A DNA stretch of 64,000 nt, taken from positions 69,495-133,494 of the forward strand of contig JAHBVR010000002.1 of NCBI GenBank assembly GCA_019637395.1. Direction: 5' to 3'. A model generated the notes under the pieces. It saw only the letters and a program-made list of their open reading frames with translations. It had not been told where the DNA came from and did no database searches. This document shows positions 27,245 to 46,992 of this stretch, one piece after another (position 1 is the stretch's first letter; every line of letters begins with the position of its first letter). This DNA comes from Vulcanimicrobiota bacterium (GTDB lineage Bacteria > Vulcanimicrobiota > Xenobia > Xenobiales > JADMJV01). The position numbers and the translations under genes were made by a program.

Positions 27245-27856
27245 ACTCTGGCCGTTGTGCGCGGGGCCCAGGCCGAGAATGAGCCGGGCCGCCTTATCCA
27301 CCCACTGGTCCGGAGTAGGAAAAAAGCGCGCTCCTTCGCCCAGCGCCTGACGCAACATATCGGTCTGGAGCGTGCCCGGATCCAGTGCCACCGCCGCCAT
27401 CGTCTTGGGCAATTCCGAGGCCAGCGTCTTGACCAGGCCTTCCACCGCCCATTTTGAGGTGCAGTAAGGACCCATGCGCGGCGAGGTGGTGCGCCCGTAG
27501 CCGGAGCTGATGCCGATGAGCACACCCCGGGTCATGTGGGGCAGCACGGCTCGGAAAAGGTAGAACACCCCTTTCACGTTCACGTCGATGAGCCGCGAAA
27601 AATCTTCCGGTTCGACCTGGGCCAGAGGCGCGGGCGAAAGCACGGTGGCGGCATTGGCGAGGACCAGATCGGGCGCACCGTAGTGATGCACGACGCTCTC
27701 GACCCAGTCGCGGACCTGTCCGAAGTCGCTTGCGTCCACCCGGTTGGGTGGGGCGGAAGCCTGAGAAAAGCCCCAGACCTGGTGGCCTTGCTCGCTGAAG
27801 TAGTCGGTCAGGGCGGCGCCCAGGCCGCGCCGATTACCGCTGATCAGAATGCGCAT
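27233..27856 (-). CDS. Short-chain dehydrogenase/reductase (SDR) family protein
   Basis: N-terminal ILISGNRRGLG Rossmann motif and catalytic Y...K (GPYCTSKWAVEGL). Confidence 0.7.
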   Translation of the reverse strand: MRILISGNRRGLGAALTDYFSEQGHQVWGFSQASAPPNRVDASDFGQVRDWVESVVHHYGAPDLVLANAATVLSPAPLAQVEPEDFSRLIDVNVKGVFYLFRAVLPHMTRGVLIGISSGYGRTTSPRMGPYCTSKWAVEGLVKTLASELPKTMAAVALDPGTLQTDMLRQALGEGARFFPTPDQWVDKAARLILGLGPAHNGQSLSV

Positions 27857-28787
27857 AGAATTTCTCCAAGAATTGTTCCCATTGATTCGGATCCAGGACG
27901 GCGCCTGCCGATTGGGGGTGACCGCGCACGATCAGGCCCAATTGACCGAGGATTTTGATGGCGTTCAGCGCTCCCCTGCTGCGCGCCGAGATATGCACCT
28001 CGGCCACGTCGCTGCGCCGATTGGCCGCCAGCACCACATAGTCGGCCAGACGCGCTTTCCAGATCTGGGCGACCACGGACTGGATGGGGCAGTCGCTGGA
28101 AAATTGCACCAGGGCAATCCGGCCGCGTTTGATGGCCGGGACCTGTTTGGCCTGGCCCAGGCGTTTGCGTACCTTGCGCTGGCAGTCGCGTAGATAGACC
28201 ATGGAGGCATGGTCAGAACGTAACATTTGCGCGGGAGAGTCGTGATGAGTCAGGGCTGACAGGGCCTGCTCGCAGTCAGCACCGGCTCGATGAGCACTGT
28301 TGACCAGCGAGGTGAGCTGGCGTAAAGGATTGAGCCCCCAACGCCGTATTTGATTCTGCAATATTTCGCCGGCGGCGGAGTCGCCCAGGTCGCTGAGGAT
28401 TCCCAGGGCGGCAATCCAGGCGTGCGGGCCGTCGCTTTCGCCCCATAGCAGTTCATGGGTCAGCCAGGCGGTACAGCGGTCGGGACGATGCAGCAGGAGG
28501 GTATCCGGTGGCGGTTGCCGCGGCAGGGGGTGGTGGTCGATGACGACCGTCGGCAGTTGCCAGGGAAAGCGTTCCTCGGGGCAACTCAGGTCCAGCAGGT
28601 AGACCAATCGGGCCGGATTTTGCAGAACGGGTAGCCACTGGCGGGCGCTGACCACCTGGGTGGTCCCACCCAGGCGCAGCTTCCAGAGCGCCGCCGCGCA
28701 CAGCCCGTCGGCGTCAAAGTCATGCAGCGCCGTCGGTGGACCGGGGTAACGCCGAATCCACTCTTCCAGGAAGTCTTTCAGGGCCAC
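27834..28787 (-). CDS. DHH-family phosphoesterase (NrnA/RecJ-like DHH-DHHA1)
   Basis: VVIDHH motif and the C-terminal GHPQSAG (DHHA1 GGH-like motif). Overlaps the upstream gene by 10 bp and the downstream SDR by 23 bp. Confidence 0.6.
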   Translation of the reverse strand: MALKDFLEEWIRRYPGPPTALHDFDADGLCAAALWKLRLGGTTQVVSARQWLPVLQNPARLVYLLDLSCPEERFPWQLPTVVIDHHPLPRQPPPDTLLLHRPDRCTAWLTHELLWGESDGPHAWIAALGILSDLGDSAAGEILQNQIRRWGLNPLRQLTSLVNSAHRAGADCEQALSALTHHDSPAQMLRSDHASMVYLRDCQRKVRKRLGQAKQVPAIKRGRIALVQFSSDCPIQSVVAQIWKARLADYVVLAANRRSDVAEVHISARSRGALNAIKILGQLGLIVRGHPQSAGAVLDPNQWEQFLEKFYAHSDQR

Positions 28788-30022
28788 AATTTGGTGACGG
28801 TCATCGGCGTGAGGCCGGCGGGAGGACGAATTTTCCAGAGCGAGCCCCGTTCGGTGGTCAGGAAAAATAGGCTGCCATAGCGGTCAGTGGTCATCCCCGA
28901 AGGTAAGTCCTGGCGCAAATTCTCATCAAGCGTTCCCAACAGCGACCACTCGCCGGTGCTGTCCACAAAGCGGTAGAGCCGGGCCCGATCATGCACATAA
29001 ACGGCCCAGCCGTGGCTATCCATAGCCAGTCCAATGGGAGAACCCAGCCCCAGGCTGGCGGGCGGGCGGAAACGCCGGCGGTGCCAATTTCCCAGCGGGC
29101 CGGCGCTCTCCAGCTCGGTAGGCGAATAGTGGGCCGAGGCCTCGGGACTGACGAGTTTGCGCAGACATTGGTAGTCCACGTCAGCCACCCAGATCAAGCT
29201 CATGGCCGGGTCACAAACGATCCCGGCCGGTCGGCCCAGCGGAGGATTCTGAGGTTTGCTGACGCTGGTGCTGTTCCAGGCGCTGCCATCGCTGAACCAG
29301 AGGCCGCGATTGGTGAGGTCGGCCGCCACCAGGCGACCGGTGCCCTGATCGGTGGCCATACCGCTAAACAGGGCCAGGGCGCGCTGGGAATCTACCGCTG
29401 CTACGGGCGCCGCCAGCGCTGCCCCCCAGGTCCCGGGCGCGGGCAAGGTCTCTCGATAGGATACGGGGGACTCTTTGCTACCTCCGCGCCAGAAGAAATT
29501 CGTGCCGGGGCGCCCGGCCAGGGCGCCCCCGCGGCGAGCGTCGCTGACCGCGCCCAGGTTGGTGACGGTGGAGGTCTGGTCGTCCCAGCCCATTAAGTCC
29601 GTTCCGTTGACCCAGACCACTTTGTGGGAGTATTCATCGCTGATCACACCGCTGAAGGCGATGGCCGGGTCGGATGTCAGGCAAAAGGCCCTGGCCAGCG
29701 CCCCGCTGGGCGCCACCGCCTCCACTTGCAGAACGTAAAGCCCGTCCTCATAAGGAGTCAGGCTCAGGGTGGTATTGAAACCCGGATTAGGGTCTGTTTC
29801 CTGGCGCAAGCCGGTGGCGAGTTCCTCGAACGGAACGGTTTTGGCTTCTTCCAGGCGGCGGTGGGCCAGCATGGTGCATTTGGAGTAATCGATGGAGCGC
29901 CGGGCGTGACGCTGACCAGAAGCAAATAGAGACATTAAATAGAGGCAAACGAGCAAAAGCAGCAGCAGCGAAACTTGCACTTCCAACAAGGACAGACCCT
30001 GACGCCAGCCGCGATTCCCCAT
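28778..30022 (-). CDS. Prepilin-type (class III) N-terminal leader protein with a large beta-propeller/NHL-like periplasmic domain
   Basis: MGNRGWRQG|LSLLEVQVSLLLLLLV: short basic leader ending in Gly, Glu at +5, then a hydrophobic helix. Followed by about 380 aa of beta-rich repeats. Confidence 0.5.
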   Translation of the reverse strand: MGNRGWRQGLSLLEVQVSLLLLLLVCLYLMSLFASGQRHARRSIDYSKCTMLAHRRLEEAKTVPFEELATGLRQETDPNPGFNTTLSLTPYEDGLYVLQVEAVAPSGALARAFCLTSDPAIAFSGVISDEYSHKVVWVNGTDLMGWDDQTSTVTNLGAVSDARRGGALAGRPGTNFFWRGGSKESPVSYRETLPAPGTWGAALAAPVAAVDSQRALALFSGMATDQGTGRLVAADLTNRGLWFSDGSAWNSTSVSKPQNPPLGRPAGIVCDPAMSLIWVADVDYQCLRKLVSPEASAHYSPTELESAGPLGNWHRRRFRPPASLGLGSPIGLAMDSHGWAVYVHDRARLYRFVDSTGEWSLLGTLDENLRQDLPSGMTTDRYGSLFFLTTERGSLWKIRPPAGLTPMTVTKLWP

Positions 30023-30065
30023 TCTCTTAGGTTGCTTCCACATTCCGCAAAAACCTGCATAAAAG

Positions 30066-31399: not shown

Positions 31400-31885
31400 T
31401 TAGATACCCGCGGAAATACGGGCCTGGTCGTGTTGGCGGGTCAGGTAGCTGACGATTTGTTCCTGCTGTGAAGGGGTGGCCCACAGTTCCAACTGGCCAC
31501 TGTAGCACTTGATGGGTTTGACTATGCCGAGAGAACTCTGGCTGGGTGGAGCTTCGGTTTGAACTTCCGAGGCCAGGGCCACGTGCTTGACCTGGCCCAT
31601 CACTTTCATCTGTCCGATGCCCTGGAGCAGAAACTCCAGTTCCAGGCACTCTTCTTCCTTGACCAGAGTGGTGGTGCGGAAAATCATTCCGGAGGTGGTG
31701 AGGCGGCCGCACAACAGGCGGAGAGGCTGATCGCTCCCGCTGCGATAGGCGATGACGGGCAGGATGCTGCGGAGACGCCCGCTGGTGGTCGGAGCCAGTG
31801 TCTTTTCGCTGGCCTTCTGAGGGGTTTTGCGACCGAAAAGCGCCTTCAGGTTCAGCGCGCGAAAAAAGGGAAGTTCTTTAGCCAT
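31400..31885 (-). CDS. Hypothetical protein, possibly PilZ-like
   Basis: 161-aa ORF from the internal Met (MAKELPFF...). Weak resemblance to PilZ beta-barrel proteins; unverified. Confidence 0.35.
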   Translation of the reverse strand: MAKELPFFRALNLKALFGRKTPQKASEKTLAPTTSGRLRSILPVIAYRSGSDQPLRLLCGRLTTSGMIFRTTTLVKEEECLELEFLLQGIGQMKVMGQVKHVALASEVQTEAPPSQSSLGIVKPIKCYSGQLELWATPSQQEQIVSYLTRQHDQARISAGI

Positions 31886-32053: not shown

Positions 32054-32884
32054 ATGGTCGCGACCCCCATCGTGAAGTGGGCCGGCGGCAAAGGACGCTT
32101 GCTTTCTCAATACGAGCCCTACCTGCCCCCCCGCTTCAAACGCTATTTCGAACCCTTCGCCGGCGGGGCGGCGGTGTTTTTCTGGCTGCGCAATCAGCGC
32201 GGCCTCAAGTTTTCGGCCACCCTGAACGACTCCAATGAGGAACTGATCAATTGCTATCAGGTCGTGCAGTCCCAGCCGGAGCCGTTGCTGGCGCGGCTAC
32301 GCCAGATGGCCGACCGGCATAGCCATGCTTACTACTACCAGATTCGCGCCGAACGACCCGAATTGCCTCTGGAGCGCGCCGCCCGTCTCATTTATCTGAA
32401 CAAGACCTGTTACAACGGACTCTATCGGGTCAACGCCTCGGGCGGATTTAATGTGCCCATGGGCCGCTACAAGGATCCTTCCATCGTCCAGGAGGACAAG
32501 ATTGTGGCTGCTCACCAGGCGCTTCAGGGAGTGCAGTTGTGGAACAAGGGGTTTGACGACGCCGCGCTGGCCGCTCGCAAAGGCGATTTTGTCTACTTCG
32601 ATCCGCCTTATCAGCCGCTCAACGCCACTTCCAACTTCACCAGCTACACCAAGGACCAGTTTGGCATGGAACAACAGTGCCATCTGGCCGCGGTCTTCAA
32701 ACAATTGGTCAAACGCGGCTGCCACGTGCTGCTGTCAAATTCGGACAGTGAGTTGGTGCGCGATCTGTACCGTGATTATCAGCAGGTGGAAATTCGGGCG
32801 CCCCGCTTCATCAATTCCAAAGCGGCCGGCCGCAGCTCGATCGCCGAGTTGCTCATCCTCGCAAATCCCGCAGAGAGTGGATGA
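32054..32884 (+). CDS. dam: DNA adenine methyltransferase (Dam family, GATC-specific N6-adenine MTase)
   Basis: Collinear with E. coli Dam: IVKWAGGKGRLL, EPFAGGAAVF, LNKTCYNGLYRVN...GGFNVPMGRYK, catalytic DPPY, SNSD. Confidence 0.85.
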   Translation: MVATPIVKWAGGKGRLLSQYEPYLPPRFKRYFEPFAGGAAVFFWLRNQRGLKFSATLNDSNEELINCYQVVQSQPEPLLARLRQMADRHSHAYYYQIRAERPELPLERAARLIYLNKTCYNGLYRVNASGGFNVPMGRYKDPSIVQEDKIVAAHQALQGVQLWNKGFDDAALAARKGDFVYFDPPYQPLNATSNFTSYTKDQFGMEQQCHLAAVFKQLVKRGCHVLLSNSDSELVRDLYRDYQQVEIRAPRFINSKAAGRSSIAELLILANPAESG

Positions 32885-33269
32885 GCTTCTCGGGAAGGGC
32901 TACCTTGGCGAAGGTGTGGCGCGCGACCGCCACCAACACGTAGCTGGCGGTCGCGATGAGGTCCGGACCTTGTTCCGGGCGGGTGACTTCGAACGACAGT
33001 TTAAGGCTGGTCTGACCGATGTGAGAAACCCAGCACGACACTTGCAGCAGGTCATCGAGTCGAGCGGCCACCAGAAAGTCACATTCGATGTGCCGGCGCG
33101 GTAACCAGACATCGAGCTCTTCGAACATCCGGCCGTAAGCGAATCCGATATGACGAAACATTTCGCTCTCGGCGAACTCGAAAAAGCGAATGTACGAACC
33201 GTAGAAAATAATTTCGGCAGCGTCGACGTCGCTCCAGCGAACCCGTTCTTGGATGGAAAATTTGCCCAT
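32853..33269 (-). CDS. Acyl-CoA thioesterase (4HBT/YbgC-like hotdog fold)
   Basis: RVRWSDVDAAEIIFYGSYIRFFE... matches the 4-hydroxybenzoyl-CoA thioesterase family. Convergent 32-bp overlap with dam. Confidence 0.7.
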   Translation of the reverse strand: MGKFSIQERVRWSDVDAAEIIFYGSYIRFFEFAESEMFRHIGFAYGRMFEELDVWLPRRHIECDFLVAARLDDLLQVSCWVSHIGQTSLKLSFEVTRPEQGPDLIATASYVLVAVARHTFAKVALPEKLIHSLRDLRG

Positions 33270-33352
33270 GCAATTCCCTTAGCAAGTGGGTTTGGGGCCA
33301 CCTGCCGCTCAGTCTAGAAGGCACCTAAACTTTCATCGAGAAGCCTCCGGCC

Positions 33353-36300
33353 ATGATTTTATGGGAGACCTACTTCGAATCGGCTCAGCAAGCGCTGGCT
33401 GAGGGCGACGACGCCAAGGCGGCCGAGCTTTTTGCTTCCGCTTTCGAGGAGGTCGAGTCCGAAAGTGTGCGCGATGATCGCTGGTTGCGTACGTTGTTGG
33501 GCTGGTCCAAAAGTCTGACCCGCCAGGGCAATTACGACCAGGCCACGGAAGTGCTCCAGGTTGACCCGGCGGAGCTGGCCGCCTGTCCAGCGGACTTACA
33601 ATTGGATTTGCAGGCCACCCTGGCCCAACTACAGCAGGCCAAGGGGGACAGCGCCGCCGAGCTGAACAGTTGGGCCAATTGGTACGGGGCTCTGAACGGA
33701 GCCAGTGAAGCCCGCTTGCCTCACCTGCGCCGGGCCGTGCAGTTGGCTCAAGAATTGCAGGCGGACTGGATGAGCGGGGCGCGGGAGCTGCTCTACAGTT
33801 GGTCGGTGGAGTTGTTGGGACCCGATCACCCGGAGACCTTGGCCGCGGCTCAGCACCAGCTCGATAGTTACCTGGCCGAAAAGGATTGGGCTCGCGCTGA
33901 GCCGCTGCTGCGTGCTCAACTGGCGCTGAACGAGAAAGATCGGTCCGCCTGGCTCAAGACGCAAGGTTTATTAGCTCTGGCCCTGCGCTCTCAGGGCAAA
34001 GCCGAAGCGGCCTGGCTCGCTTATCGAGAAATTTTGCGCGCTCAGCCGCTGGAACACGAAGAGCATTTGGAGGTGCTTCGTTGGGCCTATGAAGAGGCTC
34101 AGGGCGAGCAGGCTCAGGAAGTCGCGCTGGACTATCTGATTCGACTCACCCAGCCGCTGCCGGGCCATCTCGACCTCTACGACTATGTTATGGTGCTGGC
34201 CGAACCGGCGGATCAACTGCGCTTGCAGCAGGCTCGACTGGGCTGGGCCGAGGCCCTTCAGACCAGCCTGGAGATCCAGTTGGACTGGACCCACGAATTG
34301 GCGCTGGCTCTCGAGGCGCAGGGGCAGCCCGATCAGGCCAATTTTTTCTGGGATCGAATTTTGCTGGAGGGCCTTCCCAAGAAGGCGTTGGCCGACGCTC
34401 ACCTGCGCGCCGCGCGCAAGGCCGCCGCTCAGGGGCAGCCGGCCGGAGACCACTACCGGGCAGGCCTGATGGGGCGTCTGGAGCAGTCCCAGTGGGAAGA
34501 GTGCTGGCTGGAGGACGCCCTGCATTGGGCCCGGCTCGAGTTTGAGCAGAACAATCAGGTCACCGCCCTGGCGATTCTTACGCCGCTCCTCGGGCAGCTC
34601 GAAAAACGCTCCTTGGAAGGCACGGCTCCCTACTGTGAGGCTCTCTTTATGCGGGCTCGACTGGCCTACGCGCAAGAGCAGCCCACGGGCCAGGCGGACC
34701 TGGAGCAAGCTTTCGAACTCTGGCAGGCGGTCGAACAGCCGGCGGACCTGGGAGTCAAGATTTCCACCTTCGCTGTCGAACAGAGCATCGCGGCTCGTCA
34801 GCAGACGGACTACCAGCGCTGGGCTGCGCGTCTGGAAAAGCTGGGTGTGGAACCTCCGCCCTTCGAACGCGGCTTCGATGAGGAGGCGATGCAGGCTCTG
34901 CATCACTCGGGAGAGTGGGTCCGGCTGGAACAAGAACTGCGCGAAGTTCTGCCCAAGCTGGGAGCGGAAAGCCCGGAGGAGCATTTTGTCGCCTACCTGT
35001 GGCTGGCCGAGAGCTTGGAGCAGCAGGGACGCTGGGAGGAGGCCTTGGAATTCCGCCAGCAATCTCAGCCCACTTTGGTGGAGCGGCTGGGTGCTGCCCA
35101 CGCGCTGGTTTTACGCGGTCAAATGCAGTTGGGTCAGTGCCTCAATGCCTTGAGCCGCTTCGCTGAAGGCGAACGGGTCCTGGCCCAGTCGGTGCGCGCC
35201 CATGAGAAGGCCCTGGGGGCTGACAGCCTGGCCGTGGGCCGGGTATTGCTCGCTTTGGCCGAGAGTTTCCGGCTGCAAGGCAAGGATAACCTGATGGAGG
35301 CGGTTTCCGGCCGGGCTGTCGGCTTGCTGGAAAAACACTTGCCGGTGGGACACCCGGACCGTTTGCAGGCCAAGCGGGACCTGGTGCAGTGGATGATGGA
35401 TCAGGGCCGCTTTGGCGAAGCCCGCCAACAACTCCAGTTTATGGAGCAAGAAGAAGTTCAGGCTTTTGGCGCGGATCACCCCGAATTAGCGGTGACTCTC
35501 TCGCAATGGGCCAGCCTGGAAACGGCCGAGGGCGACTACGCGGCAGCCGAGGTCCACTACCGGCGCTCGTTGGACCTGTTCGAACGCGGTCTCGGGGATG
35601 CCCACCCGAACGTGGCCGCCACTCTCAACAACCTGGGACAGAACCTTTACCGACAGGCTCACTATGCTAAAGCGGCCAGCGTGCTGGAGCGGGCTTTGCA
35701 GATTTTTGACGCCCACGATGCCGGGCGCGTCTCGACCATGGTCAACCTGGGACTGGTCTGGCAGGCTCAACAAGAACATGCTAAAGCCCAACAATGGTTG
35801 GAAGAAGCCTTGCGGCTGAGCCAGGAGTGGTTGGGCGAAGACGACCTGGAGGCCGCCTTCTGCTGCTTTACGCTGGCGGAAGTGCTGGCTCATCAGGGAC
35901 AAATGGCGGAAGCCCGCCAGTTTGCGCAGAGGGCTCTGGACATTCGCGAAAGACGCCTGGGAGCGTTGCATCCGGAAACCTCCACCAGCCAGGCTCAGGT
36001 GAGTAATCTGCTGATGCGTGACGGCCGGGAGGCCGACGCCATCCCCCTGGTGGAAGGCTCCCTGAAAATTCAGGCTCAGGCCCTCGGGGAAGACCATCCC
36101 GAATTGATCCCTACCTATTCAACCTTGGGCCGACTCTACATGGCCGATCAGCAGTGGGATAAGGCGGAGGAGACCCTGCTCAAGGCCATTGGTCTGATCC
36201 ATCGATCGACCGCCCAGGTCAGCGCCGAACTGGCTCAGAGAGTGGCCGAGTTGGGCGAACTTCGGGCTTCTCAAGGAGATTTGGAGCAGGCCATCGGGTT

Positions 36301-39300
36301 CTCGGCCAAAGCGGTGGAGATTCTGGTGGAGGCGTTGGGAACTCAGCACGAGGCCACCGATCCGGTCATGCTCAGACTGGCCAAGCTCTACCTGCAGGCC
36401 GCCCGCTATAAAGAAGCCGAGGCTTGCTTCAAGCGGGTGCTGGACCAGCGCACCCAGCGCCTGGGCGGCGACGACCCTGGTGTGGCTCTGGTCTGGCTGG
36501 AACTGGCCGAACTCCAATTGGCCCAGAACCGCCAGGTGCTGGCCGAAACCTTGGGCAAAAAGGCCCTGGATCTGATTCAGCGACGCTTTGGTGAAGAGCA
36601 TGTGCAACTGCGTCCAGCTCTGGAATTCCTGGCCCGGCACGCCTCCCACCACGGCAACGAATCTCAGGTTGCGGCCTATGAGCAGCGACTGGCCGCTCTG
36701 GTGGAGCCGTCCCTCGAGGATACTCCCTCAACCACCACCTCGCCGGTCGTGGCCGTTCCCTTACCCGACACCGAAGGGCAGGCGACCGTCACGCCGGAGT
36801 CAGGCCCTTCTGAGGTCGAAGGAGAGACCGTTCCTGCAGAAGATGAGCCGTCCGTGGAGCCACCTTCCATTGAGGCGGAGGCTGTCCACCTCGAGACGCC
36901 GGCGCCTACCGAAAGGGACGCGCCCGCCGAGGCGGTTGTTGAAGTGGCCGTGCCTGACGAGGCTGCCGGCCTGGTCGAGGATGTGCCTTCGGTTTCGGAA
37001 GCCATCGAGGAATCTGGGGCAGAGCCGGCGACCGCGGTCATGGCCGAGGCTGTTACCGAAACGGTTGCTGAAGCGGCGGTGGAACCCGTGGTTGCCGAGG
37101 CACCTGAGGTGGTGCCGGTGGTGCCTGAGCCGGAGCCGGAACCGCTCAGTCCGGAGGAACAGGCGGCCAGGGCGGCGCTCGAAAAGAACTGGGTTTATGT
37201 CAGGGAGTTGTTGACGCCGCTGGTCGCCGCGCGCAGCGGAGTGGACCTGGCCGAGATATTGCGCCGTCTGTCCCTGGCCGAGCGCCACCTGGGCAATCGC
37301 ACTCAGGCCGAGCGGCTGCTCTTGCAATCGATTACCTTGTGGTCTCAGGAATACGGTGAGAACCATCCGGAACTGGCCGAAAGCATGGGAGACCTGGCCG
37401 AGGTCAGTTTCGAGATGGGTAAGTTGGAGCAGGCGGAAGGCTTGCTGCGCCGGGCCACCGAGATTCAGGTTCGCCTGCACGGCACCGACCATGCCGCGAT
37501 GATTCCCTGGCTGTTGCGCCTGGGCCGGATCTATTTGCCCCACAAGGCCAGCCAGGCCCTGCCGCCGCTGCAACGGGCCCTGGGCTTGGCCCAGAGCCGC
37601 CTCAACGCTCAGGATCCGGTGCAGGCGGAGATTCTCTGGTCTCTGGCTCTGGCCCAAGAGCAGGCGGGTGACTTTGAGGAAGCCACGGTTCTCCTGCGCC
37701 GACGCCTGAGTTTTCCGGATGGCGAAGAAGCCCTCGAAGTCCAACTGAAGCTCGCCCAAATGCTGCTGCGGGCTGGACAAATCGAGGCGGCCACGCAGAT
37801 TCTGCATAAGTTGGAAGTGCACTTGCCGGTTCCCGGTCCCGAGATTGAGGAACAGGTAAAGGCGCTGGTGGGCAACATTCTGGTCTTGGAAGACCGCCTC
37901 GAGGAAGCCGAGCCGCGTTTGCTGGAGGCCCTGCAGATGCGCAGCCAGCGTCTCAGCACGCAGCATCCGGATTTGCGCCCCATCCTGTTCAATCTGGCCA
38001 AACTCTATAGCGCCCGCGAAGCTTACCAGCAGGTGGCTATTTTCGCCCAGCAGGCCCTGGAGTTAACCCCCGAAAGCGAGACCGAGACCAGGCTGCAGCT
38101 CTATTCTCAGTTGGCGCCCGCCCTGATGCACTTGGACCGGCACTCGGAAGCGGAGGTTCTGTATCGCACCTGGGCGGATTTGATCGTGGCCCAACAGGGG
38201 GAAAATCATCCGGCCCAACTGCCGGCCCTGCAAGCCCTTTCCAAGCTGCTGCAGCGCCGCGGCGACTCGATGGCGGCCCAAGAAATGCGCGAGCAGGCCT
38301 GGCAGATCCTCAGCCAGAGCCCGCAGGTCTCGGAAGCCGAGTTTCTGTTGCCTTTGGAGGACCTGGCCCGCGGCGCCATCGAGCAGGCTGCTTGGGATAA
38401 GGCTGAAGCCTGGCTCCGCCGCGCCTACGCCATCGCGGAGAAACAGGATGGACTGGCGGCGGCGCGCCTGGCTTATGCTCTGGGCGAAGTCTTCCGCTCG
38501 ACCGGCCGCCTGGCCGAAGCCGAGACCGCCATTCGCCGCTCGCTGGAATTCCGCCAGACGGCGCTGGGGGCCGAGCATGTGGAAACGCTCCGGTCCCTGC
38601 AGTCCCTGGCCGAGGTTTACTCGGCCCAGAATCGGTTTGAAGCTGCTCAATCAATGCTCAGCCGCTGTTTGGATGCGGGTAAGCAGACGTTGGGCGATCA
38701 GCATCCCGACCTGGCGGGTTTTCATCGCGCCCTGGGCGTACTCTGGTCCCACACCGGCCGGATGGACGAAGCCGAGAAGTCCTTGTTGGAGGCGCTCGCT
38801 CTGGTCGAGAATCTCTCCCCGCCCCATCCCGAACTGGTGCCTACCTTGGAAGCGCTCGGCCAATACTATCAACGCCTCGACCAGTTGGCCCAGGCCGCTC
38901 CCTTTTACAGTCGGGCTCTGGATTCAATGGAGCAGTCGTTGGGACCAAGCCATCTGGCCGTGGCCGATTCTCTGTTACAACTGGGCGAGTTACAGCAGCG
39001 TCAGGGGAATTTCGAGGAAGCCGAGAAGCTCTATCGCCGCTGTCTGGAGATTCGCAGTCAGAAACTGGCGGCGCAAAGCCCTCGTCTGGCTCAGGTCCGC
39101 CAGGTTCTGGCCCAACTGCTGCAAAAGCAGGGGCATACGGCTGCCGCCCGCGAGTTGTTCGAGCAGGCTCTGGCCGCTCTCTGGTCGGAACAAGGCGGTG
39201 AGAGTTCGCAGGTGGCGGAATGCCTCGAAGGTCTTGGGCTGCTGGAGTTGCAGCAGTCCCTTTATGCCGAATCGGAAGCTCGCCTGCAAAAGGCTCTGAC

Positions 39301-40588
39301 CATCCGGGAGAAGGAACCGGCTGACCGCCAGGGCCCCACCATGAATACCCACCAATTGCTGGCCCGCGTCTTTCTGGAAAGCCGCCGGCCCGAGATGGCC
39401 GAGCGCTCTCTGAAGCGAGCTCTGGAGATCGCCCAGAAAGCCTTCGGAGGAGACCGTCCTGAAGTAGCGGCCTGTCTCGAGCAGTTGGGTGGATTGTATT
39501 TGAGTCAGGGACGCTATGTGGCGGCCGAAGCCCTGTTTGATCGCGCCCTGGAAATACGCGACCGGAGCCAGCAGCCGCAGCATCCCGATTCGGGCTTTTG
39601 TTTGCTGGGTCTGGCTCAGATTTATCTGGCCCAGAATCAATTGACACAGGCCTGGCAAACGGCCGAGACGGCCAAGAAAATTTACGACGCGCTGCCCCAG
39701 CAGCCTAACCTGGATGGTGCCCAGGCTCTGTATCTGATGGCCGAAACGCTGCGCCTGCAGGGGCGCTTCAAGGAGTCCGAGGCGCTTTATCAGCGCTGCC
39801 TGGAGATTCGCAACAAGTTGTTGGGCAATGACCACCCCGAAGTGCAGCGCGGTTTGCACGGTCTGGGTGTGTCGCTGATGGATCAGGGCAAAGCTCCCCA
39901 GGCCGAGCGCATTTTTACCCACGCTCTGAGACTGCTGGAGGCCAAGTTGGGCAACGATCACCCCGATCTGGCCAACAGTCTGCACAGTTTGGGACTATTG
40001 CATCGCAGCCAGGGTCGCGGCGCCACCGCTGAACTGCATCTGAAACGAGCTTTGGAACTGCGCACCAAGGGATTGGGTAACGAGCACCCGGATCTGGCGG
40101 CCAGCTTGCAGGCCATGGCTCAGTTACATTTGGATCAGCGCAACGACCAGGCGGCTGAGGCGTTATTGAAACAGGCCTTGAGCATTCGAGAGAAGGCTTT
40201 GCGCGCCGATCACCCGGCTCTGTCCGCGCTGTTGCTCTTGCTGGCCGGTCTTTACAAATCGCAGGAGCGCTTTTCCGAGGCCGAGCCCCGCTTGAAGCGC
40301 GTGCTCGATCAGCGCGAAAAGTTGCTGGGCACCCATCACCCGGATACTGCCGCCATCCTTCAGGAACTGGGCGAACTCTATCTACTGAACGGCCAGCAAC
40401 AGCAGGCGGAAACCTTGCTCAAACGGGCCCTGGATATTTATGAAAAACGCCTGGGCCAGGAACATCCTACGATTTTGCCGTGCCTGCATCTGCTCTGGAA
40501 GGCTTACGACGCCCAAAAACGCACCCAGGAAGCGGCCGGCATCCGCTCGCGCATCCAACTCCTCGAAGTTACTCGCCCTGCTGGTTAA
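33353..40588 (+). CDS. Giant tetratricopeptide-repeat protein (2411 aa; KLC/TPR_12-type repeats throughout, central acidic P/E/V/A-rich linker)
   Basis: Dozens of LG..HP..A..L..LA.LY...GR..EAE.L..RAL.I.E..LG units. No Walker A or other enzymatic motif seen. Low-complexity segment at roughly 36700-37160. Confidence 0.85.
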   Translation: MILWETYFESAQQALAEGDDAKAAELFASAFEEVESESVRDDRWLRTLLGWSKSLTRQGNYDQATEVLQVDPAELAACPADLQLDLQATLAQLQQAKGDSAAELNSWANWYGALNGASEARLPHLRRAVQLAQELQADWMSGARELLYSWSVELLGPDHPETLAAAQHQLDSYLAEKDWARAEPLLRAQLALNEKDRSAWLKTQGLLALALRSQGKAEAAWLAYREILRAQPLEHEEHLEVLRWAYEEAQGEQAQEVALDYLIRLTQPLPGHLDLYDYVMVLAEPADQLRLQQARLGWAEALQTSLEIQLDWTHELALALEAQGQPDQANFFWDRILLEGLPKKALADAHLRAARKAAAQGQPAGDHYRAGLMGRLEQSQWEECWLEDALHWARLEFEQNNQVTALAILTPLLGQLEKRSLEGTAPYCEALFMRARLAYAQEQPTGQADLEQAFELWQAVEQPADLGVKISTFAVEQSIAARQQTDYQRWAARLEKLGVEPPPFERGFDEEAMQALHHSGEWVRLEQELREVLPKLGAESPEEHFVAYLWLAESLEQQGRWEEALEFRQQSQPTLVERLGAAHALVLRGQMQLGQCLNALSRFAEGERVLAQSVRAHEKALGADSLAVGRVLLALAESFRLQGKDNLMEAVSGRAVGLLEKHLPVGHPDRLQAKRDLVQWMMDQGRFGEARQQLQFMEQEEVQAFGADHPELAVTLSQWASLETAEGDYAAAEVHYRRSLDLFERGLGDAHPNVAATLNNLGQNLYRQAHYAKAASVLERALQIFDAHDAGRVSTMVNLGLVWQAQQEHAKAQQWLEEALRLSQEWLGEDDLEAAFCCFTLAEVLAHQGQMAEARQFAQRALDIRERRLGALHPETSTSQAQVSNLLMRDGREADAIPLVEGSLKIQAQALGEDHPELIPTYSTLGRLYMADQQWDKAEETLLKAIGLIHRSTAQVSAELAQRVAELGELRASQGDLEQAIGFSAKAVEILVEALGTQHEATDPVMLRLAKLYLQAARYKEAEACFKRVLDQRTQRLGGDDPGVALVWLELAELQLAQNRQVLAETLGKKALDLIQRRFGEEHVQLRPALEFLARHASHHGNESQVAAYEQRLAALVEPSLEDTPSTTTSPVVAVPLPDTEGQATVTPESGPSEVEGETVPAEDEPSVEPPSIEAEAVHLETPAPTERDAPAEAVVEVAVPDEAAGLVEDVPSVSEAIEESGAEPATAVMAEAVTETVAEAAVEPVVAEAPEVVPVVPEPEPEPLSPEEQAARAALEKNWVYVRELLTPLVAARSGVDLAEILRRLSLAERHLGNRTQAERLLLQSITLWSQEYGENHPELAESMGDLAEVSFEMGKLEQAEGLLRRATEIQVRLHGTDHAAMIPWLLRLGRIYLPHKASQALPPLQRALGLAQSRLNAQDPVQAEILWSLALAQEQAGDFEEATVLLRRRLSFPDGEEALEVQLKLAQMLLRAGQIEAATQILHKLEVHLPVPGPEIEEQVKALVGNILVLEDRLEEAEPRLLEALQMRSQRLSTQHPDLRPILFNLAKLYSAREAYQQVAIFAQQALELTPESETETRLQLYSQLAPALMHLDRHSEAEVLYRTWADLIVAQQGENHPAQLPALQALSKLLQRRGDSMAAQEMREQAWQILSQSPQVSEAEFLLPLEDLARGAIEQAAWDKAEAWLRRAYAIAEKQDGLAAARLAYALGEVFRSTGRLAEAETAIRRSLEFRQTALGAEHVETLRSLQSLAEVYSAQNRFEAAQSMLSRCLDAGKQTLGDQHPDLAGFHRALGVLWSHTGRMDEAEKSLLEALALVENLSPPHPELVPTLEALGQYYQRLDQLAQAAPFYSRALDSMEQSLGPSHLAVADSLLQLGELQQRQGNFEEAEKLYRRCLEIRSQKLAAQSPRLAQVRQVLAQLLQKQGHTAAARELFEQALAALWSEQGGESSQVAECLEGLGLLELQQSLYAESEARLQKALTIREKEPADRQGPTMNTHQLLARVFLESRRPEMAERSLKRALEIAQKAFGGDRPEVAACLEQLGGLYLSQGRYVAAEALFDRALEIRDRSQQPQHPDSGFCLLGLAQIYLAQNQLTQAWQTAETAKKIYDALPQQPNLDGAQALYLMAETLRLQGRFKESEALYQRCLEIRNKLLGNDHPEVQRGLHGLGVSLMDQGKAPQAERIFTHALRLLEAKLGNDHPDLANSLHSLGLLHRSQGRGATAELHLKRALELRTKGLGNEHPDLAASLQAMAQLHLDQRNDQAAEALLKQALSIREKALRADHPALSALLLLLAGLYKSQERFSEAEPRLKRVLDQREKLLGTHHPDTAAILQELGELYLLNGQQQQAETLLKRALDIYEKRLGQEHPTILPCLHLLWKAYDAQKRTQEAAGIRSRIQLLEVTRPAG

Positions 40589-41312
40589 TCCGCTCGTAAT
40601 TTCGCAAATGGCGGATGATGCCGAGCAGGAAGTTTACTTCGAAGACTTCTAAGCGGGAGCGATGCAGAATATCGTTGATTTTCCGCAGTTCCTCGTCCAG
40701 GGTGGCATCGTGGCTGGGGTAACCATGATCCGATAGATAGCGGGAGATTTCTCCCAGGGCGCCTTGCAGAAGTTTGGGTTCGGCCCAGCGATTGGGTTTA
40801 CTGCCCAGGTCCGTGTCCCGGTAGCGTCCCAGCAGCTCGTAGAGCATGAGCGTGACGGCGTGGGCCAGGTTGAGTGAGGAGTGAACCGGGTCGGTGGGAA
40901 TCTTCACGCGCCAATGGCAGATGGCGATGTCGGCGTTATCCAGCCCGCTTTCTTCGTTGCCGAAGACCAGGGCCAGCCGGCCGAGCTGGAAGCGCGGGAT
41001 GACGGTGTCGCTCAAGCCGGCCGGAGTGACCAGGCGATGGCGCCGTTTTCCGGACTTCCCCGTCAGGGCCACCGAGAGGTCGATGCCGACCAGGGCTTCC
41101 GGCAATGTCTCGGCGTATTGGATTCTATCCAACCAGGCGGCGGCGTGGGTGGCCCAGTTTTGCGATTGCTGGGAGGGGCGGCGTTGCGGTCGCACCAGCC
41201 ACCAATCGGTGACTCCGAAGCAGGCCAGCGAGCGCGCCACCGCGCCGATATTGGCTTCGCCCATCGTTTCCACCAGGATGACGCGGACCTGGTCAGGTTT
41301 GAGGAGGTTCAT
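40569..41312 (-). CDS. SpoU/TrmH-family RNA 2'-O-methyltransferase (TrmJ-like)
   Basis: VILVETMGEANIGAVARSLACFG, LVFGNEESGL, RVKIP and SLNLAHAV motifs. Confidence 0.75.
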   Translation of the reverse strand: MNLLKPDQVRVILVETMGEANIGAVARSLACFGVTDWWLVRPQRRPSQQSQNWATHAAAWLDRIQYAETLPEALVGIDLSVALTGKSGKRRHRLVTPAGLSDTVIPRFQLGRLALVFGNEESGLDNADIAICHWRVKIPTDPVHSSLNLAHAVTLMLYELLGRYRDTDLGSKPNRWAEPKLLQGALGEISRYLSDHGYPSHDATLDEELRKINDILHRSRLEVFEVNFLLGIIRHLRNYERINQQGE

Positions 41313-41613
41313 CGGGAGGAGGTTCGTCGCCCTGGACCACTTCTTGAAGTTGCTTCTCCAGGCTCACGATCTGCTGCTGAAATTCGCGCACCGATTCCAC
41401 CGAGTCTTTCAGTTCCTCGGGAGAGAACGTGTCCATATCAAACATGACGCAGACGCGCTCAGCCAGCGTGATCAGAGCCTGGTGTTTGTCTTCCTTGGCC
41501 TTGCTGAGCTGGTTTTGCAATTTGGTCCTGTCGACCGTCTCCTTAGCCTTCTTCTGCAAGAAATCCAGGCCCATTTTGAACGACTTTTTGGCTTTCTGGC
41601 TGAACTCTTCCAT
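41293..41613 (-). CDS. Hypothetical Lys/Glu-rich coiled-coil protein (106 aa)
   Basis: ORF in a locally lower-GC stretch; heptad-like composition; Pro/Glu C-terminal tail. Overlaps the trmJ-like start by 20 bp. Confidence 0.4.
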   Translation of the reverse strand: MEEFSQKAKKSFKMGLDFLQKKAKETVDRTKLQNQLSKAKEDKHQALITLAERVCVMFDMDTFSPEELKDSVESVREFQQQIVSLEKQLQEVVQGDEPPPDEPPQT

Positions 41614-46437: not shown

Positions 46438-46992
46438 GTGAGCAAAATGAGCAAGGTCGCCACGAACCACAAAGCCCACGCCCACAAACCGAGTCACGGC
46501 CACAAACCCAAGCCGAAGCCCGGCGCTCACAAGCCCAACAAGCCGGCGGCCAACATCACCAATTTCAATCAGCAGGCAATGGATCAGCAGATGCTCATCT
46601 GGCAGATGCGGCAGGCCCAGATGATTCAGCAGTTCAACGCCGGGCTGGCCGGTCTCCAGCAGCAGCTACAGCAAGGCGGAGTGCCAAATCCGCAACAGGT
46701 CGCCGCTCAGGCCCAGGCCGAACAGCAGGCTCAGGCCCAACAGGCTGCCTTCACTGCCTATCAGACCCAGGCGATTGCGCAATTTCAGGCCACCGGTGCC
46801 GCCCTTCAGGGGACTTTCTCGGCCAGCATGCAGCAGGGTTTTGGTTCCCTCGAGTCCTCGCTGGGCGGATTTCTCAACCAGGGCTTCTCTCCGGCTCAGT
46901 TCAACGGCGGGGCCTACGCGCTGAGCGCCAGCTCCAGCCTCTTCTCCGGCCCCATCGCCGTGCCCACTTTTTACGGCAACCGCCGTTATTAA
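46438..46992 (+). CDS. Hypothetical low-complexity protein (His/Lys/Pro-rich N-terminus, Gln/Ala-rich core)
   Basis: AGAGGTG RBS precedes the ATG; an AT-richer promoter-like region lies upstream; a strong terminator lies downstream. No signal peptide. Confidence 0.5.
   Translation: MSKMSKVATNHKAHAHKPSHGHKPKPKPGAHKPNKPAANITNFNQQAMDQQMLIWQMRQAQMIQQFNAGLAGLQQQLQQGGVPNPQQVAAQAQAEQQAQAQQAAFTAYQTQAIAQFQATGAALQGTFSASMQQGFGSLESSLGGFLNQGFSPAQFNGGAYALSASSSLFSGPIAVPTFYGNRRY

Follow-up and report, generated by a model that had tools for sequence, protein, structure and literature searches.

Introduction

Eukaryotic TPR (tetratricopeptide repeat)/HAT mega-scaffolds are long superhelical arrays of fixed repeat number that hold multi-protein complexes together. 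In defence and sensor systems, TPR arrays are usually quick to evolve and differ in their number of repeats. MamA self-assembles, and the kinesin-light-chain-like protein BtubC (BKLC) decorates BtubAB mini-microtubules. SgmX of Myxococcus xanthus is an all-TPR polar scaffold with a proline-rich region, which is cytoplasmic and activates type IV pili (PMC9811614). Different partners of SgmX, MglA-GTP and FrzS, use separate TPR blocks or triads, with cis masking of one block by another (PMC9811614).

Here, I analyze a much larger TPR protein, encoded in a 64-kb window (the whole stretch of DNA that was studied). The KLC1/2 proteins and the bacterial BKLC/BtubC (PDB 5o01) have TPR_12/TPR_10-type arrays of about six repeats, whereas the giant protein has about 39 units plus about 15 hairpins. 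No report of this giant family was found in the literature on Eremiobacterota with TPR, on giant genes with TPR, and on bacterial KLC/TPR_12.

Results

The gene and its surroundings

It was found that a complete coding sequence occupies positions 33353..40588 on the + strand. As in the original prediction, it is a single uninterrupted ORF of 7.2 kb, with an ATG start, 2411 codons for amino acids and no internal stop. The product (268 kDa, pI 5.0, net charge −125) has the same sequence as NCBI MBX3166327.1, a "tetratricopeptide repeat protein" of a Ca. Eremiobacterota/Vulcanimicrobiota MAG. A sequence scan of the giant protein revealed no signal peptide, lipobox, or transmembrane segment. Its N-terminus MILWETYFESAQQALAEGDD is acidic and has no hydrophobic core, and the maximum of the Kyte-Doolittle 19-residue mean is 1.34, with 0 windows above 1.6. 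A secreted or periplasmic TPR lipoprotein of the PilW/PilF, BamD, Tgl, or PrsT type was rejected because signal peptide and lipobox are absent and the NCBIfam scores lie far under the cut-offs.

The gene is monocistronic. The upstream neighbour, a YbgC/FadM-family acyl-CoA thioesterase gene (32853..33269, −), is divergent, and the downstream neighbour, a TrmJ/YjtD-family (SpoU) RNA methyltransferase gene (40569..41312, −), is convergent and overlaps the 3′ end of the giant gene by 20 nt. Both lie outside the feature, and both adjacencies are conserved. A Dam methylase gene (+) is also among the neighbours. It had been noted that these genes are unrelated to the giant and form no operon that explains it; this holds, and the neighbours are housekeeping genes. 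The gene order is kept across the relatives, which is most simply a sign of their kinship. Dam was discarded as a functional neighbour, as it is missing at the locus of the most distant ortholog, where the giant gene retains its position. A link to tol-pal via the thioesterase and a weak YbgF TPR match was also dropped: the thioesterase passes the generic YbgC/FadM subfamily cut-off only, and the YbgF match to the giant is far under its cut-off. No promoter-like site was found in 32700-41500, terminator-like sites there occur at chance level in the scan, and Rfam and tRNA scans of the 64-kb window gave no matches.

Two TPR arms and an acidic linker

In Pfam searches, TPR_12 matched 26 stretches of the protein (E 8e-207; 670 bits, cut-off 30.1) and TPR_10 matched 19 stretches (428 bits, cut-off 27.5), while TPR_NPHP3 was also matched. 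With these tandem repeats above the gathering score, the protein belongs to the KLC-type TPR proteins, and its repeat content exceeds chance expectation by far. For mapping the repeat units, a unit HMM was built from the giant itself. It detected 13 units of 42 aa in residues 551-1090, about 26 in 1306-2402, and about 10 degenerate ones in 1-420. In total, there are about 39 clear units that recur every 42 aa, which together with about 15 degenerate hairpins make about 54 TPR-like hairpins. The repeat type is that of KLC and BtubC, but the identity to them does not go beyond the repeat consensus, and a heptad-repeat or motor-binding region is absent from the giant.

The N-terminal part (aa 1-550; 33353..35002, +) is a degenerate TPR-like alpha-solenoid of about 15 helix hairpins, and its best conserved stretch is the first 50 residues (MILWETYFESAQQ...). 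It is followed by arm A (aa 551-1112; 35003..36688, +) with 13 KLC-type 42-aa units, the linker, and arm B (aa 1276-2411; 37178..40585, +) with about 26 such units; regularity and conservation peak in the final nine (aa 2003-2378). The original prediction of a protein made almost wholly of KLC-type TPR units was thus confirmed by Pfam, NCBIfam, and PADLOC, all of which gave TPR matches alone, with a degenerate array in residues 1-550.

AlphaFold2 (AF2) models covered aa 1-560 and 901-1500, computed from shallow input alignments of 4-5 sequences; the remainder of the protein was assigned from sequence profiles. Both models have an all-alpha superhelical fold, with nothing but helices outside the linker and pLDDT of about 88-90. 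The fold matches of the N-terminal model were all TPR proteins (CTR9, OGT, TTC21B/IFT-A, Ski3, APC subunits, BtubC/BKLC, KLC, and LGN). The top Foldseek matches (E 1e-8 to 1e-5) were eukaryotic TPR/HAT mega-scaffolds, namely CTR9, Ski3/TTC37, TTC21B/IFT139, the OGT TPR domain, and APC/C subunits. At 9-16% identity and TM 0.2-0.3, this is a likeness of fold only and implies no counterpart complex.

As had been predicted, an acidic PEVTA-rich segment without TPRs divides the protein in two; by composition, it spans aa 1113-1275 (36689..37177, +). This linker is rich in Glu (20%), Ala (18%), Val (16%), Pro (15%), and Thr (8%), with a net charge of about −37 and Leu nearly absent, and it is predicted to be disordered. 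In the AF2 model, its core (aa 1120-1256) lacks secondary structure and has pLDDT of about 30, compared with about 90 for the TPRs on either side. The protein as a whole has two arms, rigid superhelices of aa 1-1112 and aa 1276-2411, tethered by an acidic disordered spacer. A short motif, PVVAVPLPDTE (aa 1131-1141; 36743..36775, +), lies about 20 residues past arm A. Of the 8 orthologs, 7 have the pattern P[VI]VxVPLP[DHR]TE, and the remaining one has a degenerate form of it; P1136, P1138, and E1141 are invariant in a three-way alignment. The linkers of 5 of the 8 also have a W-acidic-like PDWL[LT][DE].

Search for catalytic and effector domains

Is there any other domain in the giant protein? 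In Pfam, no non-TPR family had a credible score. NCBIfam and PADLOC returned TPR-type matches alone, and regular-expression scans found no Walker A, HExxH, GxSxG, or kinase HxD motif. The protein cannot be classed with the STAND NTPase-TPR proteins, as it has neither a P-loop NTPase with Walker A nor an NTPase family match in Pfam, NCBIfam, or PADLOC. Nor is it a CHAT-TPR protein, since CHAT (PF12770) is absent from the giant and from the six orthologs listed. No beta strand is present in the N-terminal AF2 model. The predicted lack of a catalytic or NTPase domain is therefore supported by profile searches, motif scans, and the all-helical N-terminal model.

Two assignments were rejected. PADLOC returned only a generic TPR model and gave no defence-system assignment. 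The whole protein scored 366.9 bits with NF040586 (FxSxx-COOH system TPR protein), above the curated cut-off of 300, but this is an artefact because repeated TPR matches were summed. The two arms scored 145.5 and 254.5 bits, both under the cut-off, the N-terminal 560 aa had no match, and only profile positions 434-740 of 830 were matched, in the TPR part and outside the non-repeat N-terminal half of the profile. The genes called up to 10 kb to either side, on the window contig and in relatives, include no FxSxx-COOH partner families (radical SAM/SPASM enzyme, precursor peptides).

The best non-orthologous matches of the giant are CHAT-TPR, kinase-TPR, and STAND-TPR proteins of 1300-2640 aa (22-37% identity; 132-373 bits), which share its TPR_12/TPR_10 repeat type. 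All 27 have PF12770 CHAT, PF00069/PF07714 kinase, or PF13191 AAA_16, while the giant family has none of these. The premise that large bacterial TPR proteins usually accompany STAND ATPases, kinases, or CHAT is thus correct. A score gap separates the most distant ortholog (2093 bits) from the best effector-fused TPR protein (373 bits).

Orthologs and selection

Orthologs were found by exhaustive phmmer and full-length searches; a word-indexed search with the N-terminal 560 aa gave generic TPR proteins only. The family is distributed in a small Vulcanimicrobiota (Eremiobacterota) clade only. Seven relatives (50-88% identity) have a one-piece gene wherever the contig permits. The full-length ones encode 2454, 2458, 2481, 2576, 2596, and 2700 aa, and two others are interrupted by contig ends only. 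Down to 50% identity, the arms are collinear without indels and the repeat number is constant. The linker is the sole part that changes in length (164-428 aa); its acidic P/E/A/V composition is kept while length and sequence vary, and it has been lengthened in relatives via short tandem acidic Pro-rich units.

The dN/dS is 0.032 for arm A and 0.037 for arm B, compared with about 0.29-0.3 for the linker. For the same genome pair, the arm values (0.03-0.04) may be set against those of TsaD (0.055), HU (0.077), and TrmJ (0.107). Both arms are under purifying selection as strong as, or stronger than, that on these three genes. Even where the repeats differ from each other, about 45-50% of positions are invariant among the orthologs, indicating that each repeat keeps its own identity. 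Over 19 canonical units, conservation does not differ between groove-facing (0.48) and outer positions (0.44) and so gives no pointer to the site of ligand binding.

Conservation is highest in the blocks aa 1-50, 593-800, 1670-1790, and 2003-2411. The block in arm A (aa 593-800; 35129..35752, +) covers units A2-A6, with 86% invariance among 7 orthologs in unit A3 (aa 635-676). The C-terminal block (aa 2003-2411; 39359..40585, +) covers units B17-B25, which are 48-79% invariant per unit, and 60-79% in 8 of the 9. Such patchy conservation is as expected for discrete binding platforms.

Discussion

These results clearly indicate that the giant is a genuine, strongly conserved bacterial protein with TPR helical repeats only. 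It is probably a cytoplasmic, non-enzymatic, multi-partner TPR mega-scaffold, restricted to a small Vulcanimicrobiota (Eremiobacterota) clade. In the original prediction, it looked like a pure scaffold; this putative role derives from the absence of other domains, a negative kind of evidence. Each conserved repeat block (aa 1-50, 593-800, 1670-1790, and 2003-2411) may be a platform on which its own partner proteins or peptides dock, as in SgmX (PMC9811614) and eukaryotic TPR scaffolds, and the acidic spacer may be a flexible tether by which the reach of the two arms is set. Short conserved spacer motifs, e.g. VPLPDTE, could bind to a TPR groove of the same or of another molecule. SgmX may be taken as a functional model by analogy only: both proteins are essentially all-TPR and have a proline-rich region, but the 14 TPRs of SgmX compare with about 54 hairpins in the giant. 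No MglA, FrzS, or pilus genes were found near the giant in the window locus or in relatives.

A bolder form of the scaffold reading seems improbable. It holds that the giant is a near-essential, lineage-defining cytoplasmic organiser, in which an acidic entropic spring tunes the distance of two frozen TPR superhelices. Its linker motifs would lie in KLC-type grooves in cis, and the scaffold, autoinhibited in this way, would open when it binds a partner. Such autoinhibition would be a bacterial counterpart of that of kinesin light chains.

Could the giant be one half of a split system? It may be a sensor or regulator that belongs to a CHAT-protease-type or STAND-type system whose effector was lost or is encoded elsewhere in the genome, with the TPRs sensing a ligand and the output given in trans. 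The best non-orthologous matches speak for this, as all 27 combine KLC-type TPRs with an effector (CHAT in 24, a protein kinase in 2, and an AAA_16 ATPase in 1), which indicates that this repeat type is typical of such systems. However, no CHAT, NTPase, kinase, or nuclease genes lie within ±10 kb in the window and five related loci. The C-terminus stops directly after the last TPR and abuts the convergent gene without a domain remnant, and the sole PADLOC match is the generic one. Moreover, the arms are frozen (dN/dS about 0.03) with constant repeat number, unlike typical defence or sensor arrays. On balance, this explanation is unlikely.

It is similarly doubtful that the giant is a structural or cytoskeleton-associated protein, which would self-assemble into a coat or lattice like MamA or decorate filaments like BtubC/BKLC, with the spacer as an entropic spring or bristle.

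Finally, a repeat-rich protein with a low-complexity middle from a MAG might raise the suspicion of a repeat collapse or expansion, a sequencing-error fusion of two TPR genes in the linker, or a decaying pseudogene, but an artefact is virtually inconceivable given that the gene has no DNA repeats longer than 49 nt or above 85% identity, that its units share a median of only 21% protein identity (maximum 52%), that the identical 2411-aa product was recovered in two independent assemblies and read sets, that one reading frame runs through linkers of differing length in seven orthologs, which come from different samples and assemblers, that dN/dS is 0.03-0.07 at dS above 1, and that GC3 is 0.70-0.73 along the whole ORF, the same as in adjoining genes. 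Neither of the two outcomes that had been named as refuting the original prediction was found: profile searches gave no NTPase or protease domain, and in relatives the gene is split by contig ends only, nor are there long DNA repeats able to collapse.

The giant family is a well-documented orphan rather than a new mechanism, unusual in size and ordinary in kind. It is also a clean natural case of a frozen repeat array combined with a freely evolving acidic disordered tether, which may be of interest for repeat-protein evolution and for designed TPR scaffolds. If the autoinhibited organiser existed, it would be a new kind of bacterial cell-organising protein. Most likely, the giant is a scaffold for protein docking that is confined to a single little-known lineage. 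Should this reading be true, it is among the largest bacterial TPR proteins that lack an effector, and an array constrained like universal housekeeping genes would point to a sizeable multi-protein assembly specific to the barely studied, mostly uncultured Vulcanimicrobiota/Eremiobacterota.

Architecture of the giant TPR protein

The giant gene (window 33353..40588, +) is a single uninterrupted ORF with an ATG start, encoding a protein of 2411 aa and 268 kDa with a pI of 5.0. KLC-type TPR families of Pfam match it nearly throughout (TPR_12 in 26 stretches with an E-value of 8e-207, TPR_10 in 19 stretches, and TPR_NPHP3), and its membership in the KLC-type TPR repeat class was confirmed when tested. 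No non-TPR family has a credible Pfam score, the NCBIfam and PADLOC matches are of the TPR type only, and a pattern scan found no Walker A, HExxH, GxSxG, or kinase HxD pattern. This agrees with the original observation that the protein has no Walker A or other catalytic signature.

A unit HMM was seeded with 13 clear 42-residue units of the giant and iterated against the giant itself. It detected 13 units in aa 551-1090 (arm A, aa 551-1112), about 26 units in aa 1306-2402 (arm B, aa 1276-2411), and about 10 further weak or degenerate units in aa 1-420. Beyond the N-terminal region (aa 1-550), the longest stretch left unmatched by this HMM is 41 aa and itself unit-like; no space for another domain is left outside the linker. 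This linker (aa 1113-1275; nt 36689-37177, +), recognized by its composition, contains 20% Glu, 18% Ala, 16% Val, 15% Pro, 8% Thr, and almost no Leu, with a net charge of about -37. AlphaFold2, applied to aa 901-1500, gave residues 1120-1256 a pLDDT of about 30 and no secondary structure, against a pLDDT of about 90 for the flanking repeats. Composition and predicted disorder agree with the original prediction that an acidic segment separates two TPR arrays. The giant has no hydrophobic stretch suitable for a signal peptide or membrane anchor, whereas periplasmic TPR lipoproteins have a signal peptide.

The N-terminal region is the only sizeable part without clear Pfam TPR matches, and NCBIfam gave no match there. 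Profile searches for a cryptic domain (Pfam, NCBIfam) found no NTPase or protease in it. Its AlphaFold2 model, built from four input sequences, has a mean pLDDT of 88, with 30 helices arranged as hairpins and zero strands, and Foldseek against the PDB returned TPR/HAT solenoids only (CTR9, the OGT TPR domain, TTC21B of IFT-A, Ski3, SYF1-type spliceosome proteins, and APC/C subunits). Since the model is all-helical and its fold matches are confined to TPR/HAT, a cryptic NTPase or protease is absent from this region.

Orthologs and conservation

The N-terminal 560 aa, searched exhaustively with phmmer against 1.84 billion cluster representatives, retrieved only two true relatives, P0005 (2576 aa) and P0006 (2700 aa), the remaining matches being one generic TPR stretch each. 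Searching with the whole protein yielded three more, P0156 (2596 aa), P0158 (2458 aa), and the partial P0157. A scan of GTDB species genomes added the loci L003 (2481 aa), L004 (2454 aa), and L005 and L006, which both end at a contig edge; their source records read Vulcanimicrobiota or unclassified 'bacterium'. The relatives are 88% to 50% identical to the giant. It had been asked whether relatives might carry several smaller genes, and the protein is encoded in one piece in every relative with a sufficient contig.

The N-terminal search also gave a 231-aa fragment, P0091 (NCBI CAN0234946.1), which starts with MILWDTF and is 34% identical to the N-terminus of the giant. Its record assigns it to the alga Phaeothamnion confervicola (1461-bp contig). 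Bacterial DNA within the algal assembly is the most likely source, and the fragment hints at a more distant family member.

The repeat number of the arms is fixed and their constraint is strong. The arms are alignable without any indel down to 50% identity, and length differences among orthologs are confined to the linker. Among seven full-length orthologs, invariant positions are concentrated in aa 1-50, 593-800 (unit A3, aa 635-676, reaches 86%), 1670-1790, and 2003-2411, while the units of aa 1431-1660 are far less conserved (14-40% invariant). Positions that vary among repeats are still about 45-50% invariant among orthologs, indicating that the identity of every repeat is preserved beyond the folding consensus. 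Presumed groove-facing and outer positions are conserved alike (0.48 vs 0.44), and thus do not point to a binding face.

The ortholog linkers are 164-428 aa long, always acidic and P/E/A/V-rich (net charge -36 to -67), and have grown in relatives via short tandem units, such as PQAEPEPVAVEPPPP in P0005 and ANAEAETAEPP in P0006. They contain three small islands of conservation. P[VI]VxVPLP[DHR]TE (aa 1131-1141 of the giant, about 20 residues past arm A) is found in seven of eight orthologs, and (PE)nPL[ST]PEE lies immediately N-terminal of arm B. A W-acidic-like motif, P[DAG]WL[LTS][DE], is present in 5/8 orthologs (P0005, P0156, P0158, L003, and L006). The linkers of the window protein, L004, and P0006 lack it; the two shortest linkers are among these. 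Examples of the motif (GMPDWLTDD, EAPDWLLDA, VPAWLSEE, and APGWLLEE) are similar to cargo motifs of kinesin light chain TPR grooves.

Genomic neighborhood

The giant gene is flanked by a divergent YbgC/FadM-type thioesterase gene (32853-33269, -) and a convergent TrmJ/YjtD-family methyltransferase gene (40569-41312, -), and thus is transcribed alone. Its last 20 nt, stop codon included (40569-40588), overlap the 3′ end of the TrmJ-like gene tail-to-tail, and no terminator-like hairpin was detected between the two. Close relatives have the same order as the window: HU, alpha/beta hydrolase, hypothetical, Dam, thioesterase, the giant, TrmJ, hypothetical, and TsaE-TsaB-RimI-TsaD. The locus of the most distant ortholog retains the thioesterase, giant, TrmJ, and Tsa genes, but has PAD_porph (agmatine deiminase-like) and CN_hydrolase genes (L011/L012 7005-8818) in place of the Dam-family methyltransferase gene (32054-32884, +) that adjoins the thioesterase gene in the window and close relatives. 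Since these neighbors are housekeeping genes on other strands, the synteny was taken as shared ancestry rather than functional linkage, in keeping with the original view of the thioesterase, Dam, and TrmJ-like genes as unrelated neighbors.

The most conserved gene of the neighborhood encodes a 161-aa hypothetical protein without Pfam or NCBIfam match (31400-31885, -). Its identity to the counterparts in L004, L005, and L006 is 96-97%, and to that in L003 84%; its adjoining genes are about 68-95% identical in L004, L005, and L006. The P0006 locus has a 163-aa counterpart at the equivalent position. Two conserved genes next to each other (27834-30043, -) encode a 421-aa protein that matches no family and a 317-aa protein whose DHH/DHHA1 matches are sub-threshold. 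Both are retained in L004, L005, and L006, and a 421-aa gene is called at the equivalent position of the P0006 locus. A 184-aa ORF (46438-46992, +) has a His/Lys/Pro-rich N-terminus (KAHAHKPSHGHKPKPKPGAHKPNKP), a Gln/Ala-rich middle, and no Pfam match; the source contig has a 181-aa gene called there.

Possible function

The giant, a cytoplasmic protein without an effector, has two long superhelical TPR arms joined by a variable acidic disordered spacer, and I consider it rather likely to be a multi-partner scaffold. Each conserved block would be a docking platform of its own for partner proteins or peptides, and the spacer would be a flexible tether. Its mode of action is probably like that of SgmX or eukaryotic TPR mega-scaffolds, with no family membership implied. 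The all-TPR Myxococcus scaffold SgmX provides the model: its TPR triads have MglA and FrzS as binding partners and mask one another in cis (PMC9811614). Known ligands of KLC-type TPR grooves include acidic aromatic peptides as well as an acidic motif of KLC's own linker (PMC6214655); thus, as a lead, the conserved linker islands might dock into the giant's own arms.

Past the orthologs, the score drops from 2093 to 373 bits, and all of the next-best 27 proteins have an effector: CHAT in 24, a protein kinase in 2, and an AAA_16 ATPase in 1. None of the orthologs carries a CHAT, kinase, or ATPase domain. This upholds both the premise that large bacterial TPR proteins are usually effector-linked and the view of the giant as an exception. 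A split CHAT/STAND-type system is an unlikely alternative, and a self-assembling or filament-associated structural role is equally doubtful. The 10 kb on either side of the giant contain no CHAT, NTPase, kinase, radical-SAM, filament, or pilus gene. As for known families, the giant is not a STAND protein (NTPase family and Walker A absent) or a CHAT protein (effector domain absent from giant and orthologs). Nor is it an FxSxx-COOH-system protein: its NF040586 score exceeds the cut-off only through the summing of many matches to the profile's TPR part.

The giant is a genuine single gene on four lines of evidence, and an artefact has almost no probability. Direct repeats within the gene are at most 49 nt long and at most 85% identical, significant tandem repeats are lacking, and its units are divergent at the protein level (median identity 21%, maximum 52%), making assembly collapse implausible. 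The identical 2411-aa product is called on contigs of two independent read sets, SRR12908358 and SRR22956010; it is NCBI MBX3166327.1, annotated solely as 'MAG: tetratricopeptide repeat protein [Candidatus Eremiobacteraeota bacterium]'. GC1/GC2/GC3 are even along the whole ORF, linker included, with GC3 like that of adjacent genes. Compared with the L004 ortholog, at dS >1, the arms have dN/dS values of 0.032 (A) and 0.037 (B), the N-terminal region 0.068, and the linker 0.29. Other genes of the same genome pair gave 0.055 (TsaD), 0.077 (HU), and 0.107 (TrmJ). Thus, the arms are constrained as much as universal housekeeping genes.

The original prediction of a non-catalytic TPR scaffold was accurate in its observations and stands, with the scaffold role as interpretation. 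The giant is of a well-known kind, with no evidence for a new mechanism. What sets it apart is its size, the missing effector (present in all near relatives), a repeat array that is frozen and under high constraint, and a distribution limited to one small clade within a little-known phylum.
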